Shown here piece by piece: positions 7,158 through 64,000 of a stretch of DNA of 64,000 nucleotides; position 1 is the stretch's first letter; each line of letters opens with the position of its first letter. A program made the position numbers and the translations under genes. The notes beneath the pieces were generated by a model. That model saw only the letters and a program-made list of their open reading frames with translations. It did no database searches and was not told the origin of the DNA. The stretch is from a virus, in the IMG/VR virus record IMGVR_UViG_3300036770_001537. One strand, 5' to 3'.

Positions 7158-7637
7158 TTATTCGGTCAATAACTTTTTTTCGGCAGAAGACTCCTCCTTA
7201 GAACCAATTTCAATCTTCTTTGGTTTCTTATTTTCTGGAATGAATCGTTCCAACCAGATTTTAAGCATACCGTTGATTAGGTCAGCATTCTTTACTTCTA
7301 CTGTATCAGCAAGAGTAAATTTGCGTGTGAATGCACGATCCGCAATTCCTTTGAATAGGAACTCAGAATCTTCGTCACTATTCACTTGACCTTTGATTGT
7401 CAATGTTCCGTCTTCCATAACAATTTCAATATCCTGTTGTCCAAATCCGGCAACAGCGATTTCAATCACATATGTATTTTCACCAGTCTTACGAATATTG
7501 TAAGGAGGATATGTGGAAATTTTGGGAAGGGTTTCACTAATAGAAGACAGTTTTTTGATCATATCATCAAAACCAACTGTTCCTTTCGATACATTAGTGA
7601 AGCCGAATGGATCATATAGATTTACGCTTGTCATCAT
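7158..7637 (-). CDS. hsp20: Small heat-shock protein, IbpA/Hsp20 family
   Basis: YPPYNI, IEIAVAGF, GIADRAFTRKFTLAD and NGMLKI motifs. Confidence 0.95.
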   Translation of the reverse strand: MMTSVNLYDPFGFTNVSKGTVGFDDMIKKLSSISETLPKISTYPPYNIRKTGENTYVIEIAVAGFGQQDIEIVMEDGTLTIKGQVNSDEDSEFLFKGIADRAFTRKFTLADTVEVKNADLINGMLKIWLERFIPENKKPKKIEIGSKEESSAEKKLLTE

Positions 7638-7641
7638 TTTT

Positions 7642-7725
7642 TAACTCCTATGTTAGCAAGTTATTATATTGTCTCCCTATAAGGCAAGACAGAGTTGAGG
7701 TACGCAATAACCTTATCCCCAACAT
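7642..7725 (-). promoter_or_regulatory. ROSE-like RNA thermometer in the hsp20 leader
   Basis: Final hairpin UAACUUGCU-AACAU-AGGAGUUA pairs UUGCU with the SD, leaving a bulged G; another hairpin (UGUCUUGCCUUAUAGGGAGACA) lies upstream. Confidence 0.7.
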
Positions 7726-7728
7726 CAC

Positions 7729-7759
7729 TATTTATAATACATTTTTATTGAGTTGTCAA
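7729..7759 (-). promoter_or_regulatory. Overlapping sigma70-like and T4 late promoters for hsp20
   Basis: Minus strand reads TTGACA-N17-TATAAATA. Confidence 0.6.
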
Positions 7760-28415: not shown

Positions 28416-28854
28416 TAAGATACATTTCCCATTTGATTATGTTGCTCAACTGAAAAGTTCTATTGTTTAATTCTTTCAATACTCTATCACAATAGTCTAC
28501 TATTTCTTGATGAATAACTTTTTTGATTAGAATTTTATTTAGGTCATCATCAGAATCAAGATACGATGGAATATCCTGCCTCATTATCTTCTTCATCTGT
28601 GGTTCCCAACCATATTCTTTCAAGTCTTCTGGATTATTCAAATCACCCATATAATACTCAATCTTCACTTTCTTGAGAGTATTATATTCATATGATAACT
28701 TCTTGACTATTAGGTTATGATGGGATAGTATGTTGAGGTATTTTGAATGAAGGTTGGGTATTCTACTCAATTCTCTTGTAGGATCGGTAGTATCAACTGG
28801 AGAATCATTTAGCCATTCTTCAGATAGGGTATCTATTGTGACTGGTGGTTTCAT
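28402..28854 (-). CDS. uvsY: Recombination mediator UvsY
   Basis: IPNLHSKY...YYMG...R.FQLSNIIKW; adjacent to uvsW. Confidence 0.9.
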   Translation of the reverse strand: MKPPVTIDTLSEEWLNDSPVDTTDPTRELSRIPNLHSKYLNILSHHNLIVKKLSYEYNTLKKVKIEYYMGDLNNPEDLKEYGWEPQMKKIMRQDIPSYLDSDDDLNKILIKKVIHQEIVDYCDRVLKELNNRTFQLSNIIKWEMYLNGRG

Positions 28855-28882
28855 ATTTATAATCCTCTATAAAATAATATTC

Positions 28883-28910
28883 ATTATAAAGGATTATTAT
28901 TATGTGTCAA
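28883..28910 (-). promoter_or_regulatory. Sigma70-like promoter for uvsY
   Basis: TTGACA-N16-TATAAT. Confidence 0.65.
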
Positions 28911-28911
28911 G

Positions 28912-29507
28912 TCATAATCTTTGAATTTTTTCTTTTTTCTTCGTGATATTTTTTCATTCTTAGTGATTGTAGTATTCTATTTTTTTCGTCAGACCAATAC
29001 TTAATCCTTTTATTTTTTTGTTTTTCTTTTACATCTTTGCGTTTGCTTGGATTTTTATCTGGATTATTTTTATAATATTCTGATCTTTTTTTACCTTCTA
29101 TCCTTTATCGCCGGGATACGCATTGGATTTTTATCTGGATTATTCCTATGATAATTTTTAAGACCTTGAGTGTTTTTACCTTTCATATTATTTTTTTGTT
29201 TTTCTGTCATTCTATATCCAGAAGTTCCATCACCACCGTCTGTTCTATTCCTCAATATCCCAGTTCCATTATCTTTACGACCATACCAACGAATTAATCT
29301 GCGTTCTAAAGCAAAAGCACCAAGTTCAGTTAGGTTTGATTCGCATATAATAATCCTTGATTTCTCTTTTGGGATGCTAATAGATTCCTTTTTCCCTTTT
29401 TTAAACAATCTTTTATTTCTACCTTTGCCGATATAATATGGTGTGCCATCTTCACGAAGATATGCATAGACATAGAACTCTAATGAATTTGATTTATAAA
29501 TAGACAT
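28912..29507 (-). mobile_element. GIY-YIG-like homing endonuclease, frameshifted near 29095
   Basis: [18 protein letters not shown]...[10 protein letters not shown]...[10 protein letters not shown]; the +1 frame continues with a second NNPDKNP repeat to TGA at 28912. Confidence 0.8.
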
Positions 29508-29509
29508 GG

Positions 29510-29564
29510 CTGGTGCTCCTGTTTAGCATTAGGGTAGGTAGATGTTGGTAGCATCGTGACCTAC
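29510..29564 (+). ncRNA. Candidate two-hairpin antisense RNA, copy A
   Basis: CUGGUGCU/AGCAUUAG and GUAGGU-A-GAUGU-loop-GCAUC-GUG-ACCUAC; TATAAATA at 29495. Confidence 0.6.
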
Positions 29565-29572
29565 ATTTCTAT

Positions 29573-30091
29573 TTATAGTCTTTGTATCTCAAAAAAGTCA
29601 TACCTAAATGTCACATCCATGACAATAGTATTATCAGCATTGTTTTTGGTATCAAACTGAATACCAGATAGAGCATATGGATGGCAGTTCTTAAATAAGA
29701 TACGTATATTCTGTATATTAGAGTTTGTATTGATCGTCAGGACTGCATCATGATATGGCGTCTTTTGTTCGTTATAGAATCTAATATACTGAGCGTAATC
29801 TTGTGGTTTGGTTAATGCTACCAACCAATCATGAGTTTCTTCCCATGTTCTAAGGTCTTCATCTACGATTGCTGTTATATTAAATTGATCATATACCAAT
29901 GTATCACCATGCCTAAACATATTGGCAAATGGTGAAGGCACCTGAACTGGTGATGTTGATATGCCTGGAATTTCTGCCGTTTGAGCAAAATACCGCAAGA
30001 AAGGCATTGTAGGAAACGAGAATGTAAATTTAGTTGCTTGTAGAAAACTGGTGTTTTCTGGAATCTTAGTTAATACTGATTGATTTGACAT
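29573..30091 (-). CDS. gp3: Tail completion/tube terminator
   Basis: NTSFLQATKFTF, AEIPGIS, VDEDLRTWEETHDWL, VTFRY. Confidence 0.85.
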   Translation of the reverse strand: MSNQSVLTKIPENTSFLQATKFTFSFPTMPFLRYFAQTAEIPGISTSPVQVPSPFANMFRHGDTLVYDQFNITAIVDEDLRTWEETHDWLVALTKPQDYAQYIRFYNEQKTPYHDAVLTINTNSNIQNIRILFKNCHPYALSGIQFDTKNNADNTIVMDVTFRYDFFEIQRL

Positions 30092-31197
30092 TACTTCCTC
30101 ATATTTGCTTCTTTGCCATTTGGATGCCAGTCCCATAAATCTCGATGGTGATATTTTATTGTGGCTAATACTAGAGGATCATTTTCTCTGTTATCTAGCA
30201 ATTTTTCTGCAATATGTGAATGGCTTGCTGCTGCTGCACGCACTTGTTCATCAGGATGTTTATGTAAAACTTCTGCATGTTCGGGATGATGATTGGCTAT
30301 TGCAGCAAGAACTGTTGGCGATCTTTCTGGTTTCTTGGTGAAAAACATACCTTTACCTGGATTCATATATTTGTCGGCAACAGATTCCCATTTGGCTGCT
30401 GCTGCTCTTACATCATCTGATGGATGGTCTATAAACTCATGTGCGAGTGTTTCTGAGCCTTCTACGATTCTTCTTTTAATTCTTTTAGATGCATCAGATG
30501 TACCAGGAGATTTTTTCATATATGTGCGAAGACTATCTTCATCTTCAAATAATTTACCATATTTTGATTTTTTAAGTGCAGGAATATCTTTCAGTTCTGG
30601 ATGTTTTTTGGTAAGATCAAGTAAACTAACTTCATTATCTCTTGAATCTCTTGCTATACCGCCTTCACCTTCATGATAGGCATATACTCCTGATGGTGTA
30701 TGGATAGTATACATATGATTTCTTTCACCCGGTTCGGCATTTGCATCCCTATAATGCTCGAAAGCATTTTCCTTACCTGTGGCAGCAACACACCAATTAG
30801 TCTTTCCTCCACCATAATTTTTGATACATGCTTCTTTGGTATCAACTCTATTTACTTTGATATTATCACTTTCATGGACGGGAACAACAGCATTTTCTTG
30901 TTGTTTCTTAAACTCTCTTTTTCTCAAGTGAAACGTCACATTTTTACTCAAACTATCATAATTTTCATATGAGTTAATGTCTCTGTCATCTTTGTGCATG
31001 ATGTCTTTTACAGAATGAAAGTCTTCTATTGTCTTTGCTACTTCTTTCATATCTGCATCTGGAGGAATATTTTTACCTAACCATTCACCATATGAAGATA
31101 GATGTTTCTTTGGAAGTTCAGATAAGTGAGGATATTTTTCTATAATATCCTTGGCTCTTGCTTCTGTCAGGTATGTGTATTCTTTGAATCTTAACAT
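30091..31197 (-). CDS. Hypothetical protein, candidate internal head protein with HEAT-like C-terminal repeats
   Basis: MLRFKEY..LTE start; YGGGKTNWCVA; HPSDDVRAAAA and HPDEQVRAAAA repeats. Confidence 0.6.
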   Translation of the reverse strand: MLRFKEYTYLTEARAKDIIEKYPHLSELPKKHLSSYGEWLGKNIPPDADMKEVAKTIEDFHSVKDIMHKDDRDINSYENYDSLSKNVTFHLRKREFKKQQENAVVPVHESDNIKVNRVDTKEACIKNYGGGKTNWCVAATGKENAFEHYRDANAEPGERNHMYTIHTPSGVYAYHEGEGGIARDSRDNEVSLLDLTKKHPELKDIPALKKSKYGKLFEDEDSLRTYMKKSPGTSDASKRIKRRIVEGSETLAHEFIDHPSDDVRAAAAKWESVADKYMNPGKGMFFTKKPERSPTVLAAIANHHPEHAEVLHKHPDEQVRAAAASHSHIAEKLLDNRENDPLVLATIKYHHRDLWDWHPNGKEANMRK

Positions 31198-49511: not shown

Positions 49512-50020
49512 TAATCTTCCTTTTTCACATCAAAATTTCCAAATATTTTTAGATGAGGATGGTCCAATATCATTCTTTTCTCATCATTACTAATTTCTCT
49601 ATGCGGTGTTATTACCGTAGGTTTATGGGATTCATTACTTGGTGGCTTATGAATTGTGGCAGGAATAGCATCTTCAGGTATAGAATGCTCGGGTTTCTGG
49701 TCGTTAATCAATTTTCTTATTCCACCATGAGATATTTTTTCGCCCTTGAATACGACAACTCCGTTTGGATGAATCCATGCAGAATGTCTTGTTATTTCAC
49801 CTCTCTTAGATTTCAAATTTTCTATGTTTTCAGTATCTTCTTCATTACCTACCTCAACTTTTCCACTTTTTTTCACTTCAGTTGGTTTGGGATTATGAAC
49901 ATAACTTACTTCTGTCCCGTTTGGTCTTACTACGGCATGTGTACCAGAACCTGATTTAACTTTCATATATTTTGGTGGGCCTTTACCTGCTTCTTCTAAG
50001 TATTGCTTGAATGTTTTCAT
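49511..50020 (-). CDS. Hypothetical protein, candidate internal head protein
   Basis: [11 protein letters not shown]-terminus. Confidence 0.6.
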
Positions 50021-50622
50021 TTTTCTTCCTTGATTTTCTTCCAATATTCTCTCATTTTTTCCGAATGTTCGGGTCTTAATTTTCCTCTAAAATAATTTCC
50101 TTTTTTCGAATTTACTTCTTTAGAATATTTTTTGCCTAAGTTTGCCTCTGAGAGTTTTCTTCTTGTTTCTATACTGGGATTTCTTTTACTCTCTGATATT
50201 TTTTTCTTAGTATCTTCAGAATATTTTTTGCCTTTGTTCCATGCTATTTGAAGACCTTTCTTTCCCTTGTTCCAAGGAATCTGTCCTTTGTGCCCATCGC
50301 TTATTTTTTTCAACTGATTTTCATTAAATTTAAATCCAGATATCCCGTCGCCACCATCAGTTCTATTTCTTAAAATACCTGTTCCATTATCTTTACGCCC
50401 ATACCATCGTATCAACCTTCTCTCTAGTGCTAATGCTCCTATTTCAGTTAAATTTTCCTCAACGATAATAATGTGATTTTTATTTTTCGGTCTTCTTATT
50501 TTTTGAGAATTATGACTAGACCATGCTCGCTTGCCTTTACCTTTACCTATATAATATGGTGTATAGTCTTCTCTAATATAAGCATATACATAATATTCTA
50601 ATGTTGATTGATAAATAATCAT
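50017..50622 (-). mobile_element. GIY-YIG-like homing endonuclease with NUMOD3 repeats
   Basis: [18 protein letters not shown]...[10 protein letters not shown]...DGGDG; PWNKG repeats; GGAGG SD before ATG 50622. Confidence 0.88.
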
Positions 50623-50623
50623 G

Positions 50624-50679
50624 CTGATACCTCCAGTATAGGTGTTAGAATGGTCGGAGACGGCAATCTCGCGGGCCAT
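50624..50679 (+). ncRNA. Candidate two-hairpin antisense RNA, copy B
   Basis: CUGAUACCU/AGGUGUUAG and AUGGUC-G-GAGA-CGGCAA-UCUC-GCG-GGCCAU; GATAAATA at 50610. Confidence 0.6.
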
Positions 50680-50682
50680 ATT

Positions 50683-51099
50683 TTATTTATCTTCTTTCGA
50701 CTTTATCATTTTCAATAAGTCGGCAGTAGTTCCGCAGAAGACTGCCTTTTCTACTGTAATATCACCTTGAGGTGTCTTATTACTCACTTCTTTTAATTCT
50801 TTGGTAGTCTTTTGTAGAGCATATAAATCTTTGGTTGTTTCTGAAATTGTTTTCATCATTGTCGCAAATACTTCGTATGCCCGAGGACTTTCACTCTGTC
50901 TTGCCAACTCCTTCATATCTTCCATTGCCAGATTACCTTGTTGAATTAAGTTTCTAAAAGTTTGTCTGGCTAAGTTGTAATCTGCTTCAGCATCATTTGT
51001 CTGTGTAGGTTCAAGTATTTCCTGTCGCACAGGTTCAAGTATTTCCTGCTTTGGTGCTACTGGTTCAATACCCAAGGCATCTGTTAATTTTTTATTCAT
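50683..51099 (-). CDS. gp16: Terminase small subunit
   Basis: DYNLAR, SESPRAYEV, FCGTTADL. Confidence 0.93.
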   Translation of the reverse strand: MNKKLTDALGIEPVAPKQEILEPVRQEILEPTQTNDAEADYNLARQTFRNLIQQGNLAMEDMKELARQSESPRAYEVFATMMKTISETTKDLYALQKTTKELKEVSNKTPQGDITVEKAVFCGTTADLLKMIKSKEDK

Positions 51100-53033: not shown

Positions 53034-53720
53034 TTATCCTTTTACTTTTCCTTTTGTCCAATCCTTACCAGGACAATCTTTACTTCTTTTATTTATCTTT
53101 CCATTGTTCCACCAGAAAGTTCCTCTCATCCACTCAGCATTATTTGGTGGTTTGCCTTTCATTGTAGCACTTGTTTTGGCGTTCATTTTCTTTTTGAGTT
53201 CAGGGTCGTGCTTCTTTCCATAAAAACCATTTTTATCACCAGTAAGTTTTTTACCATAGAAATAATTGTTTTTTCCAGAAATCAAATCACTTGCCTTATT
53301 TCTTCGTTCATCGGACCAAGATTCTCGTATTTTTTGTTTGGTTTCCTCTGTTCTTTTCTTGCCTGTGTTAGATTTGACCCTTTTAGCCTTTTCTTCTTCA
53401 GGTTGTTTTCTACCTTTATTTGCCGCCCAAGCGAGTTTTAGTGAAGTATTGGTTGTATATAAATTATAGTATTTTTTACCTAATTCTTCTTCTGATATCA
53501 AAGACAACCATTTATGTTCTTCTGATAGTAGATTATGTTTTTCTATATTTTTGCTCAAGATTCTTCTTTTGAAGTCATTAGGTCTTCTACGATAAGCATC
53601 ACGCATTCTATTAGAAGAACAAATATAACCGTCATTTAATGTTCCCCAATGGCAACCAATATAGTACATCTTACGCTTCTTATCAAACCAGATATAAATA
53701 AAACCTTCTTTTTCCATCAT
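53034..53720 (-). mobile_element. Seg-like GIY-YIG homing endonuclease
   Basis: GFIYIW...YYIGCHWG...DGYICSS; NUMOD3 repeats; WWNNG. Confidence 0.88.
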
Positions 53721-53755
53721 AACCTCCTATGACAATGGTTATGATTATATTTATA
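53716..53755 (-). promoter_or_regulatory. Late promoter with RBS-sequestering hairpin
   Basis: TATAAATA (53748-55), then a 9-bp ATCATAACC/GGTTATGAT stem over the SD and ATG. Confidence 0.75.
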
Positions 53756-54959: not shown

Positions 54960-57657
54960 CTAAAACCTCCGGTAATGAAATATCTGGTTCTGGTTCTGGT
55001 TCTTTCAATGGTTCAAGTATTGGTCTGCCAAATTCGTCAGTCCATTGTGTATCAAGAATGTGTTGATCTTGTCTTTCACCAATGACCATCCAAGAAATTG
55101 TGTCTGTTGAAGATTGGTTCTGTGAGATAATTGTCAAAATGTTGTCGGAAACTGATCCACGAACCAAATCCCAACCTGAATCATTTTGTAGGAATACTTG
55201 AATGTTTCCATTTAGTGCAGAGAAAGTTCCTTCGGTCATACCAACATGAGTGTCTATATTGACTGTTGCTTGACCATTTTCTAGTTGCACTTTGCCACGA
55301 TAGATGTTATCTGCTGTTGGTGCTTCAACGAATGAATGAACGAGATTGTGTGTTTCTGAAAGTTCAGGAAGCGGATGAGAAATCTTGAATGAACCTGATC
55401 CTTTTGACAATGCACCAGATGTATATATGTCTCCTGTAGTATAAACTCCATATGTGGTAGAATATGCTAGACGGCAATATTTATTAGAAACGGAATTGTA
55501 AGCATACACACCAGACCCTGCACTTGCATTAGTTCTTCCATAAACACCCGCTTCAGTGCTATCGGTCTGACCATATACACCATAACTATTTGTTGAGAAT
55601 CCATATGTTCCTATGCCACTGGTGGACGATCCATATACAGCGGTTGTAGTTGATGACACGCCTCTAACACCATAATTAGAATCAGAACTGCCATAAAGCC
55701 CAATACCGCTAGACGATGAGGCAAGTACCCCACCAATAGTATCTCCAACAACATGAAATCTATAAGAAACAGATGGAGAAGTAATATTAACACCAATCCT
55801 ACCATCTCCGGTTATGGTCATTCTATCGGTGCTTGCTGTCAAGAAGTTTATGCTTCTTGATGCAGAACTATGGCCTATATCTAGACCAGTATTGTCCATA
55901 TTAAAAGTTGTATTATAAAAAGAGGTGCTATTTGATGTGAAAACATATTCTGCACTAGTGCCTGCTATGTGTAATTTTCCAGAAGGAGTGGATGTGCCAA
56001 TACCAACATTGCCGGAGGAATCAGCAACTATTCTTCGATTACCTTGGCCATCAGCAATAATCACATGGTTAGATAGAGAAGATGTAAGACCCGTTACATT
56101 TGATCCTACAATTGTATTATAATTGCCAGTTGTTATTCCACGACCAGTATTATGCCCAAGAAATGTGTTAACCGATCCATAAGTATTATCATATCCAGCA
56201 GCGTTACCTACAACAACATTGAAATTGCCAGTTGTTGTATTATAAAGTGTAGCATAACCGAGAGCAATATTTTCTCCGGCTCCAGTAGAAAACCTCAATG
56301 CACCCCATCCAACTGCGATGCTTCTTATACCAGTTGTATTTGAATATAATGCATATGATCCAATAGCAACACTTTCATATCCAGTTGTATTTGAATATAG
56401 TGATTGATATCCAACAGAAGTGTTATTATCTGCCGTGTTAAATCGTAAGGATTCATATCCAACAGCAGTATTGTATTGCCCTATTATATTTTGATAGAGA
56501 GCGTTAAAACCAACAGCAGTATTATAATTTCCTGTTGTATTTGAAAATAGTGCAGCATTCCCAACAGCAGTATTATAGTTTCCTATTGTATTATAATATA
56601 ATGCCTGATAACTAACAGCAGTATTTTGGGTTCCCGTTGTGTTTGAGTATAGTACACTCACACCAACAGCAGTATTGTATTGTCCTGTTGTATTTGATCT
56701 TAGTGCATTAACACCAACAGCAGTATTATATGCTCCTATTGTATTTAAATATAGTGCATTAACACCAACAGCAGTATTTTGGACTCCTGTTGTATTTGAA
56801 TATAATGCACTCATACCAACAGCAACATTGTAATTTCCTGTTGTATTTAAATATAGTGCTCTCCAACCAACAGCAGTATTGTCGATTCCTTCTGTATTTG
56901 TTTGTAATGCAAGCATACCAACAGCAGTATTGCGGACTCCTGTTGTATTATAATATAATGCCGAACGACCAAGGGCAGTATTTTCAAATCCTGTAGTATT
57001 TGAATATAGTGCAGCAACCCCAACAGCAGTAAGACTGGTTCCTATTGTATTTGAATATAGTGCATTCGTACCAACAGCAGTGTTATTGGTTCCTGTTGTG
57101 TTTGAATATAAAGAATCAAACCCAACAGCAGTGTTTTGGATTCCTATTGTATTTAAATATAGTGCCCGATATCCAACAGCAGTATTGCTATCTGCGGTTG
57201 TATTTGAATATAAGGCAAACATACCAACAGCAGTATTGTATTGGCCAATTGTATTTGTAAAAAATGCAGAACGACCAATAGCAGTATTTCTAGTGCCTGT
57301 TGTATTTGAAAATAGTGCTGTACGACCAACAGCCGTATTATAACTTCCTGTTGTGTTTGAATATAATGCTTGATAACCAAGAGCCGTGTTTTCAATACCT
57401 ATCGTGTTTGATCGTAGTGAATCTGAACCAACAGAAGCATTTTGTATTCCTGTTGTATTTAAATACAGTGCTCTCAAGCCAACAGCAGTGTTATGGATTC
57501 CTATTGTATTTGAAAATAAGGAAAGGGCACCAACAGCAGTATTATATTGTCCTGTCGTATTATTCTCTAAAGCATCAGCACCAACGGCAATATTGGTGCT
57601 GGAATAACCAGCACCATCATAATCAAGAACGACATTTCCTTGGATTTTTAAAGCCAT
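54946..57657 (-). CDS. Tail fibre with 14-aa NTAVGxxALxxNTxG repeats
   Basis: About 30 tandem 42-nt repeats; GNVGIGT; KGSGSFKISHP C-terminal domain. Confidence 0.85.
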   Translation of the reverse strand: MALKIQGNVVLDYDGAGYSSTNIAVGADALENNTTGQYNTAVGALSLFSNTIGIHNTAVGLRALYLNTTGIQNASVGSDSLRSNTIGIENTALGYQALYSNTTGSYNTAVGRTALFSNTTGTRNTAIGRSAFFTNTIGQYNTAVGMFALYSNTTADSNTAVGYRALYLNTIGIQNTAVGFDSLYSNTTGTNNTAVGTNALYSNTIGTSLTAVGVAALYSNTTGFENTALGRSALYYNTTGVRNTAVGMLALQTNTEGIDNTAVGWRALYLNTTGNYNVAVGMSALYSNTTGVQNTAVGVNALYLNTIGAYNTAVGVNALRSNTTGQYNTAVGVSVLYSNTTGTQNTAVSYQALYYNTIGNYNTAVGNAALFSNTTGNYNTAVGFNALYQNIIGQYNTAVGYESLRFNTADNNTSVGYQSLYSNTTGYESVAIGSYALYSNTTGIRSIAVGWGALRFSTGAGENIALGYATLYNTTTGNFNVVVGNAAGYDNTYGSVNTFLGHNTGRGITTGNYNTIVGSNVTGLTSSLSNHVIIADGQGNRRIVADSSGNVGIGTSTPSGKLHIAGTSAEYVFTSNSTSFYNTTFNMDNTGLDIGHSSASRSINFLTASTDRMTITGDGRIGVNITSPSVSYRFHVVGDTIGGVLASSSSGIGLYGSSDSNYGVRGVSSTTTAVYGSSTSGIGTYGFSTNSYGVYGQTDSTEAGVYGRTNASAGSGVYAYNSVSNKYCRLAYSTTYGVYTTGDIYTSGALSKGSGSFKISHPLPELSETHNLVHSFVEAPTADNIYRGKVQLENGQATVNIDTHVGMTEGTFSALNGNIQVFLQNDSGWDLVRGSVSDNILTIISQNQSSTDTISWMVIGERQDQHILDTQWTDEFGRPILEPLKEPEPEPDISLPEVLDENG
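56110..57600 (-). repeat. 42-nt tandem coding repeat array
   Basis: Recurring ccaacagcagt..tt...cctgttgtatt. Confidence 0.9.
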
Positions 57658-62917: not shown

Positions 62918-64000
62918 TCACAATTGTAGTGCAATAGCACGTAAATCTGTCACTCTAGGGATTCTAGATGCATCATCTGATCCAAGACCAATTTTTATTG
63001 CATAATGTTTGAATCTAGTGAATTTCTGTCCGCTATCTGAAACATACTCAACTATTCCAGGATCACCAACGCTATCTAATCCAGTCATAACAGATATTGG
63101 GAATTTGAATCCATATTCTATAAAATTATTTTTATTAGACAGTGATGAATATACATCACTTTTATTTATGTAGTCTAATTTGATCCAAGGCCTATCAGAG
63201 AATGCGGTGTCGTCTTCTCCATTAAGGATTTTTACCCAGACATATATTTCGGTTCCGGGTGGTCTATATGCCGTTAAAATAACATTTAAATCCTCAGCAT
63301 CTTGGTCGGTAGCCAACGTAATTTGTTTACTCAAGTATGTATTTATTAGATTGCCGCCTCTAGATAAATCTTCGTTTGTGATATCATTATTTAGAAGATA
63401 ATCTACAAATATTGTATGTGTTCTATTTAAGTCCAAAACAGGGGACACATATTCACTACTGGTTCTCATTGTAGTTCTAATTTGATTAGACTGTAAACCT
63501 CCAAAATCATTAATTTCATCTGTTCTAGAATAGAGTGCTCTTTCGGAATCGAAACCATAATCGTTTCTATCTGAAATATACATGAAATCACCTACAACAG
63601 AAGTGTTAGATATAGATTTCATTTCAAATGAGACAACACATGGAGAAAAGTTCAAATACTGTGGTTCAAATTTAACAGTAGAATACCTTTGTCTATCTAT
63701 AGATTCTACATTGAATTGTTGTCCAGAATATAGTCCTCTAATAGTATCGTTTGCTAATATAATTCCATTTGAATCTTTTAATCTAATTCTGTAATCTGGA
63801 TTATTATCATCAAATTTATAAAGAGTTGCAAAAGTATTCGCGATTGATACTACATTAGCGGTTACTCCCTTAGATACTAAATTTGATCCATAATATGCAG
63901 TGACTGTCTCTCCTATTTCAAATCCACTATTGGACATTATATAGAGTGGTGATGATGCTGTTAATACTATAGAGTTGGCGGTTGAATTTGCTCCTACCAA
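62918..64000 (-). CDS. C-terminus of a large virion structural protein (VrlC/DUF4815-like), partial
   Basis: VSPVLDL, YLSKQITL, AYRPPGT, FKHYAIKI, PRVTDLRAIAL. Confidence 0.75.
   Translation of the reverse strand: MVGANSTANSIVLTASSPLYIMSNSGFEIGETVTAYYGSNLVSKGVTANVVSIANTFATLYKFDDNNPDYRIRLKDSNGIILANDTIRGLYSGQQFNVESIDRQRYSTVKFEPQYLNFSPCVVSFEMKSISNTSVVGDFMYISDRNDYGFDSERALYSRTDEINDFGGLQSNQIRTTMRTSSEYVSPVLDLNRTHTIFVDYLLNNDITNEDLSRGGNLINTYLSKQITLATDQDAEDLNVILTAYRPPGTEIYVWVKILNGEDDTAFSDRPWIKLDYINKSDVYSSLSNKNNFIEYGFKFPISVMTGLDSVGDPGIVEYVSDSGQKFTRFKHYAIKIGLGSDDASRIPRVTDLRAIALQL

Follow-up and report, generated by a model that had tools for sequence, protein, structure and literature searches.

Two homing endonuclease genes in the window, a 64,000-nucleotide stretch of viral DNA (IMG/VR record IMGVR_UViG_3300036770_001537), are each headed by a cassette of about 85 bases, in which a core of 55-57 nt, folding into two hairpins, lies between two convergent late-promoter boxes. 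The structure is real, the two-copy pattern being far beyond chance once relatives are added. We lean slightly towards the view that a small late antisense RNA, predicted from the sequence, covers the whole leader of the nuclease mRNA. On the broader proposal our judgement is evenly poised: that the cassette defines a family of structured, cis-antisense small RNAs that is widespread and as yet undescribed, with a late promoter in the first four codons of the gene, a portable brake acquired by unrelated homing endonuclease genes, each RNA controlling only its own nuclease through matched stem sequences.

The minus strand carries the genes of both regions examined, at 29 kb and 50 kb. Nuclease A (29091..29507, minus strand) is a GIY-YIG homing endonuclease of the YVYAY/YYIGKG type, and nuclease B (50017..50622, minus strand) a homing endonuclease with GIY-YIG and NUMOD3, 201 residues long counted from the ATG at 50622. 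Overall identity between the two proteins is 60%, and over residues 60-97 they hardly differ. Pfam places the NUMOD3 of nuclease B above the cut-off and its GIY-YIG catalytic domain just under it; in nuclease A no Pfam family was matched, NUMOD3 included. Nuclease A has a tail gene (29573..30136, phrog_45) on one side and uvsY/uvsW on the other, while nuclease B sits just after gp15 and gp16 (small terminase, 50683..51099). At 138 residues, nuclease A is short compared with the 170-220 of its relatives, and a similar peptide, NNPDKNP, can be read in another frame from the 230-nt gap before uvsY (window 28862-29200); the DNA-binding tail of the protein may therefore be frameshifted or decaying. 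An exact TATAAATA at 28854-28861 (minus strand) overlaps the uvsY start codon (TATAAATATG) and therefore cannot serve the uvsY start as annotated. No close relative of the window was found by DNA among deposited phages.

The span originally noted for copy A consists of the 65 nt from the stop codon of the upstream gene to the ATG of nuclease A, together with the first codons. Its antisense box, an exact match to TATAAATA at 29495..29502 on the plus strand, is formed by codons 2-4 of the nuclease A gene (TCT ATT TAT A). The predicted body of the antisense RNA is the 57-nt core at 29508..29564 (plus strand), running from an inferred 5' end at G29508, 6 nt past the end of the box, to the end of hairpin 2; it is the exact complement of the late mRNA leader, whose inferred 5' end is at 29564. 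The predicted hairpin 1' (29510..29532, plus strand) has 8 bp and a 7-nt loop (29518-29524), and holds at 29516-29519 the anti-Shine-Dalgarno (anti-SD) sequence CUCC, complementary to the GGAG of nuclease A. A one-base linker, G29533, separates it on the same strand from hairpin 2' (29534..29564, plus strand), in which an outer stem (29534-39/29559-64) is followed by A29540 opposite GUG (29556-58) and by an inner stem (29541-46/29550-55). The sense box, again an exact TATAAATA, lies at 29570..29577 on the minus strand and contains the TAA stop (29575-29573) of the tail gene. In copy B the antisense box is GATAAATA (50610..50617, plus strand), in codons 2-4 of nuclease B (ATT ATT TAT C); the core (50623..50679, plus strand) comprises a hairpin 1' of 9 bp at 50624-50648, with the anti-SD CCUCC at 50630-34, and a hairpin 2' at 50650-50679; and the sense late box GATAAATA (50684..50691, minus strand) overlaps the TAA stop of gp16. 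A stop codon of the upstream ORF also falls inside the sense box in 16 of 49 other loci with a recognisable upstream ORF.

The first-pass annotation had described a shared two-hairpin fold flanked by convergent late boxes, with every non-Watson-Crick pair a G.U on the plus strand, and each of these points held. The two-hairpin fold is the predicted minimum-energy structure of the plus strand in both copies (-20.3 kcal/mol for copy A and -20.4 for copy B, versus -12.0 and -11.3 for the mRNA strand), the boxes of copy A are exact, and all non-Watson-Crick pairs of both copies are G.U on that strand. Taken singly, the copies have modest fold z-scores, -2.1 (A) and -1.65 (B). A canonical intrinsic terminator, that is, a GC-rich stem directly followed by a U tract, is absent from either strand of both copies; the U-rich tail past hairpin 2', which simply complements the sense box, does not begin until 5-6 nt beyond the stem.

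The annotation had also called for a covariance model and a search of phage genomes, and these revealed a widespread element. A protein-guided scan of viral contigs yielded 80 loci, and the same element is borne by about 35 of the 57 distinct upstream regions obtained from them. RNAalifold found compensatory changes at 11 of the 15 predicted pairs in an alignment of 33 copies, and the covariance model R1 makes 46 matches in the 80 protein-guided loci. A DNA pattern scan ignored the downstream gene and sampled the CATGCTG subclass only; among its matches listed, all 80 loci searched with R1 truly match, with at least 94 matches. The total is at least 142 R1 matches in 160 uncultured-phage loci, or 123 unique copies after deduplication, those of the window included, which rules out chance or mere paralogy of the two copies. 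In the window itself, R1 matches copy A at 29505-29582 (plus strand; 71.3 bits, E 4e-23) and copy B at 50620-50696 (plus strand; 59.9 bits), and these are the only true matches; a third match, at 63112-63175 within a structural gene, is weak and lacks significance. Among cultured phages a single carrier was found, Pseudoalteromonas phage vB_Psh_XG4, with the element at 56126-56208, and the cassette is absent from the cyanophages S-SRM01, S-N03, B23, ACG-2014f and S-PM2, which encode related nucleases or an antisense RNA.

Pairing is nearly perfect across the relatives. Among 85 distinct copies, 99.0% of 1360 cells pair, and double compensatory cells number 220 against 47.3 in shuffles, counts that overstate the independent events because the copies are phylogenetically related. 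The observed covariation score was reached in none of 500 shuffles, and in slid-partner controls pairing falls to 34-49%. Both helices contribute: hairpin 1 shows double changes at five of its eight pairs, and the outer stem of hairpin 2, 100% paired in the 85 distinct relatives, at five of six. Beyond the helices, the unpaired motifs UAGAG and CGYG are conserved. The suggestion that the element stands outside the known Rfam families proved right for the window and for four relatives, ribozymes included: Rfam 15 gave no match at the gathering score in the window and nothing at E<=1 in the relatives, and the sole weak match is a chance snoRNA (E 8.9) at 29583-29664, adjoining copy A.

The strand on which this pairing is maintained was examined in 117 unique copies by typing pairs in a strand-neutral way, G.U and A.C being treated alike and the helices being placed by invariant anchors. 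On the antisense strand, hairpin 1 has 665 Watson-Crick pairs, 177 G.U (116 of which are the invariant third pair) and no A.C. The outer stem of hairpin 2 has 686 Watson-Crick, 16 G.U and again no A.C pairs, and the inner stem 465, 17 and 5, respectively. Thus, the variable wobbles comprise 94 G.U versus 5 A.C, one further G.U being invariant. Single transitions make G.U and A.C equally often, yet G.U dominates; the pairing is therefore selected on the strand opposite the mRNA, and the earlier claim that the fold favours the antisense strand is borne out by this polarity. Positions 4 and 5 of hairpin 1 vary among A-U, G.U, U-A, U.G, C-G and G-C, and their evolutionary paths cross wobbles on the antisense strand only. 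On the covariance-model alignment, 99.0% of pairs form on the antisense strand versus 88.1% on the mRNA strand, and the core folds more stably on the antisense strand than on the other in 111 of 119 copies (mean -17.5 versus -13.1 kcal/mol).

A second line of evidence comes from the beginning of the genes. Their consensus start is ATG NNT ATT TAT, and the opposite strand of these codons reads the late box NATAAATA, which is also the consensus of the upstream sense box; GATAAATA is a common form of the latter (33 of 119). The antisense box is present in most of the 119 copies, as NATAAATA in 77 of them, and the third base of codon 2 is T in 107. Codon usage follows the box: at the gene start, Ile is encoded by ATT in 81 of 88 cases (92%), compared with 40% elsewhere in the same ORFs, Thr by ACT in 33 of 34 (37% elsewhere) and Asn by AAT in 19 of 19 (68% elsewhere). 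The TATTTA motif is kept in three reading frames, giving MxIY, MYL and MLFS/MIFS starts. M-x-I-Y begins nearly all nucleases that follow a cassette, unrelated ones too, and the pattern scan did not require it. The first codons are under nucleotide-level selection, and this synonymous-site constraint bears out the idea of a plus-strand late box written into them. The same box, NATAAATA, has been reported as the late box of cyanomyoviruses (PMC2984593).

The ORFs that follow the cassette fall into at least eight unrelated catalytic-domain clusters: the YVYAY GIY-YIG type of this window, an IYLYVKTHN..TGLKYLGKT type, four more GIY-YIG-like types, HNH_3 and HNH. Singletons include phrog_3339-type endonucleases and NUMOD3-only proteins, among others. 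The diversity of these families refutes a linkage to one nuclease family, and the tie to MxIY-YVYAY nucleases that had been drawn from the two copies was too narrow; the cassette is linked to homing endonuclease genes in general. The notion of a portable module carried by mobile nuclease genes was, for its part, sustained across unrelated endonuclease families.

Some cassettes precede ORFs of other kinds. Four head terminase-like ORFs (L095:1080-1601, L138:5908-6354, L113:249-677 and L128:302-703), which have an M-D/T-I-Y start, a small-terminase-like N-terminus (..LGxE/D..IP..) and then NUMOD3-like repeats, with no recognisable catalytic domain; they may be nuclease-less derivatives or fusion products. 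Four others stand before ORFs of merely 4-12 codons (L053:118-190, L110:1191-1267, L118:4543-4616 and L100:3258-3332), where the element apparently outlasts a decayed endonuclease gene. The window also holds a third homing endonuclease, a GIY-YIG-like protein (MMEKEGFIYIWFDKK...) at 53034..53720 (minus strand), whose leader is different and simpler. It consists of a 9-bp, all-Watson-Crick hairpin (UCAUAACC../..GGUUAUGA) that covers part of the Shine-Dalgarno (SD) sequence, abuts the AUG and lies between convergent exact TATAAATA boxes at 53748-53755 (minus strand) and 53693-53700 (plus strand), the latter written in the F-I-Y-I codons of the GIY motif. R1 does not detect this leader.

TATAAATA boxes precede most late genes in the window. 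The other leaders with this box are short, unstructured and without the element, so that it does not characterise late leaders in general. Upstream of a small heat-shock-like protein gene (7158..7637), the leader at 7640-7740 on the minus strand has TATAAATA, 5 nt and then a 7-bp hairpin (GUUGGGG../..CCUCAAC), and so shares the box-to-hairpin spacing; it is not an endonuclease cassette. In the cassettes, the gap between the sense box and hairpin 2 is 5 nt in 77 of 119 copies, as it is in copy A, and 3-5 nt in 109 of 119. The late machinery of T4 reads TATAAATA, and its transcripts start about 6 nt past the box. With this geometry and the observed spacing, both inferred start sites fall at the bases of the hairpins.

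Since the two boxes form an inverted repeat, the downstream one could be both a second promoter and one arm of a stem, and covariation was therefore tested beyond the shared hexamer. No covariation appears at the variable positions of the boxes or at those flanking them (z -2.3 to +1.3), and box variants, such as CTAAATA upstream or TAC downstream, are uncompensated. Because they do not covary, the boxes appear to act as two promoters rather than as a stem. A long-range box-box stem, which would create a three-way junction mask, was rejected for the same lack of covariation and for its weak thermodynamic effect.

These results bear directly on an explanation that needs no antisense RNA, which we consider unlikely, though the most serious of those weighed here. 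The cassette would be a sense-strand leader only, its hairpins acting in the mRNA as a T4-type translational mask, as a 5'-terminal stabiliser or as both, and the first-codon box would merely pair with the promoter box in read-through RNA, hiding the start region until late transcription. Masks of this type are an established paradigm, known for I-TevI, I-TevII, I-TevIII, segB and mobE (PMC2988022), and Dassa et al. (2009, PMC2677866), in their account of hairpins upstream of metagenomic GIY-YIG and Vsr-like genes, gave the hairpins this reading. Hairpin 1 does hold the SD sequence in its loop and 3' arm, hairpin 2 is placed at the inferred mRNA 5' end and, being almost all Watson-Crick, forms in the mRNA too, and the minimum-energy fold of 29500-29580 has a short closing stem. 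Against this, the polarity of the wobbles is reversed, the mRNA strand having an A.C mismatch in every copy and about 94 more, so that hairpin 1, with its invariant A.C and frequent others, offers no stable occlusion of the SD and AUG on that strand. The T4 masks, moreover, need the loss of the 5' arm, whereas here both hairpins lie downstream of the inferred start and the late mRNA, its box being upstream of both, retains them. The predicted accessibility of the SD is practically the same in late and in read-through RNA (0.51 versus 0.47), the sole predicted change being that of codons 2-4 (0.68 versus 0.47). The absence of covariation between the two boxes also speaks against their pairing, and in both window copies the box contains or overlaps the upstream stop codon, so that any box stem would be opened by ribosomes terminating there.

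Wobble polarity by itself would be the same if the structure formed in single-stranded DNA of the template strand, for instance as a recombination, replication or homing-related signal, because G.T wobbles are tolerated there. Strand-specific wobble is typical of DNA hairpin signals such as integron attC sites and the ends of IS200/IS605, and the cassette does travel with mobile genes. We nevertheless regard this as quite improbable: we know of no enzyme or mechanism in T4-like phages that reads such hairpins, and two precisely spaced promoter boxes and an SD complement in hairpin 1 would be left unexplained. Less probable still, to the point of being very doubtful, is a nuclease-bound RNA cofactor, a ribozyme or a processing element, roles that had been entertained in the first-pass annotation. 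The conserved unpaired motifs would suit such a function. The cassette heads at least eight unrelated catalytic families, however, and no common protein partner is encoded next to it, which makes a cofactor unlikely; no Rfam family, ribozymes included, was matched, and nothing points to processing or self-cleavage.

We therefore return to the antisense RNA, and propose that both copies serve as 5' control cassettes, each for a free-standing homing endonuclease gene of a T4-like phage. Transcription from the sense promoter would give a nuclease mRNA that begins with the first base of hairpin 2; from the antisense promoter it would begin at the foot of hairpin 1', immediately beyond the AUG complement, and yield a small RNA that overlaps the mRNA by about 57 nt. 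The small RNA would be complementary to the entire leader, SD sequence included, and its anti-SD would be displayed by a stable 5' hairpin, partly in the loop and partly in the stem. Pairing with the leader would most likely proceed through a loop-loop contact to a full duplex, which would block ribosome binding and perhaps be exposed to RNase III; head-on transcription may add interference. The outcome would be a low output of a potentially self-damaging nuclease while phage genomes multiply late in infection. Both promoters being of the late class, such control would presumably be one of damping and not a switch. The activity of the antisense box, the RNA itself with its 3' end, and the repression of the nuclease are what we infer from the conserved sequence and fold; the label of antitoxin, previously suggested for it, is an analogy only. 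Antisense and sense-mask mechanisms could also coexist, since hairpin 2 forms on either strand.

If this proposal is correct, the cassette represents a new RNA family, absent from Rfam. The first codons of many proteins would then contain a promoter together with part of an RNA gene, and their puzzling universal M-x-I-Y start would be explained. It would also be a compact natural design for copy-number-compensated expression, and would provide a sequence tag by which metagenomes could be searched for homing endonuclease genes. Among the selfish elements of large phages, homing endonucleases are the principal ones; to our knowledge, their restraint is known for a few T-even cases only, all of them sense-strand masks.

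Literature searches gave no description of such an antisense module. The closest parallel in design is the IS10/Tn10 RNA-OUT/RNA-IN pair, associated with Simons and Kleckner in 1983, in which a promoter facing outward from within the 5' end of a selfish-element gene reportedly drives a small, stably folded RNA antisense to the start of the mRNA with its ribosome site; the promoters are said to face each other a few tens of bases apart, and RNA-OUT to cap the output of the enzyme as copy number rises. Like RNA-OUT, the RNA predicted here from sequence and fold is complementary to the mRNA 5' end and its ribosome site, over 57 nt. A candidate outward late box in the 5' end of the gene is conserved at synonymous sites and in three reading frames. 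Unlike RNA-OUT, it would use phage late promoters (TATAAATA), has two hairpins with conserved linker motifs, overlaps the entire 57-nt leader and, as an RNA predicted from sequence, is shared by many unrelated nuclease families.

With the T4-family masks (I-TevI, I-TevII, I-TevIII, segB and Aeh1 mobE), in which a late start inside a hairpin of the mRNA strand lets the late mRNA escape (PMC2988022), the cassette has in common the T4-like homing endonuclease genes, a late promoter directly before the gene, a hairpin that reaches the ribosome site and, presumably, limited expression. It differs in having both hairpins downstream of the box, and in that selection maintains its fold on the strand opposite the mRNA. 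The 'fractured genes' of Dassa et al. (2009, PMC2677866) are phage-like loci of ocean metagenomes with free-standing endonucleases of different families and 5' UTR hairpins. In the parts of that paper devoted to these leaders, a TATAAATA box and two conserved, mutually complementary motifs are reported upstream of the GIY-YIG and Vsr-like genes, and the hairpins are taken to sequester the ribosome-binding site on the sense strand; neither an antisense promoter nor strand polarity figures there. Compared by description only, those hairpins are possibly the same element, in which case they merit re-reading. An antisense RNA over a homing endonuclease gene has been observed in another T4-like phage: CfrI of cyanophage S-PM2 (Millard et al. 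2010, as summarised in PMC2984593) is about 225 nt long, overlaps the endonuclease gene and, according to that summary, runs back into the upstream gene. The arrangement observed for CfrI is like the one predicted here. The S-PM2 genome (NC_006820) contains no R1 match, and by that search CfrI is not homologous to the cassette.
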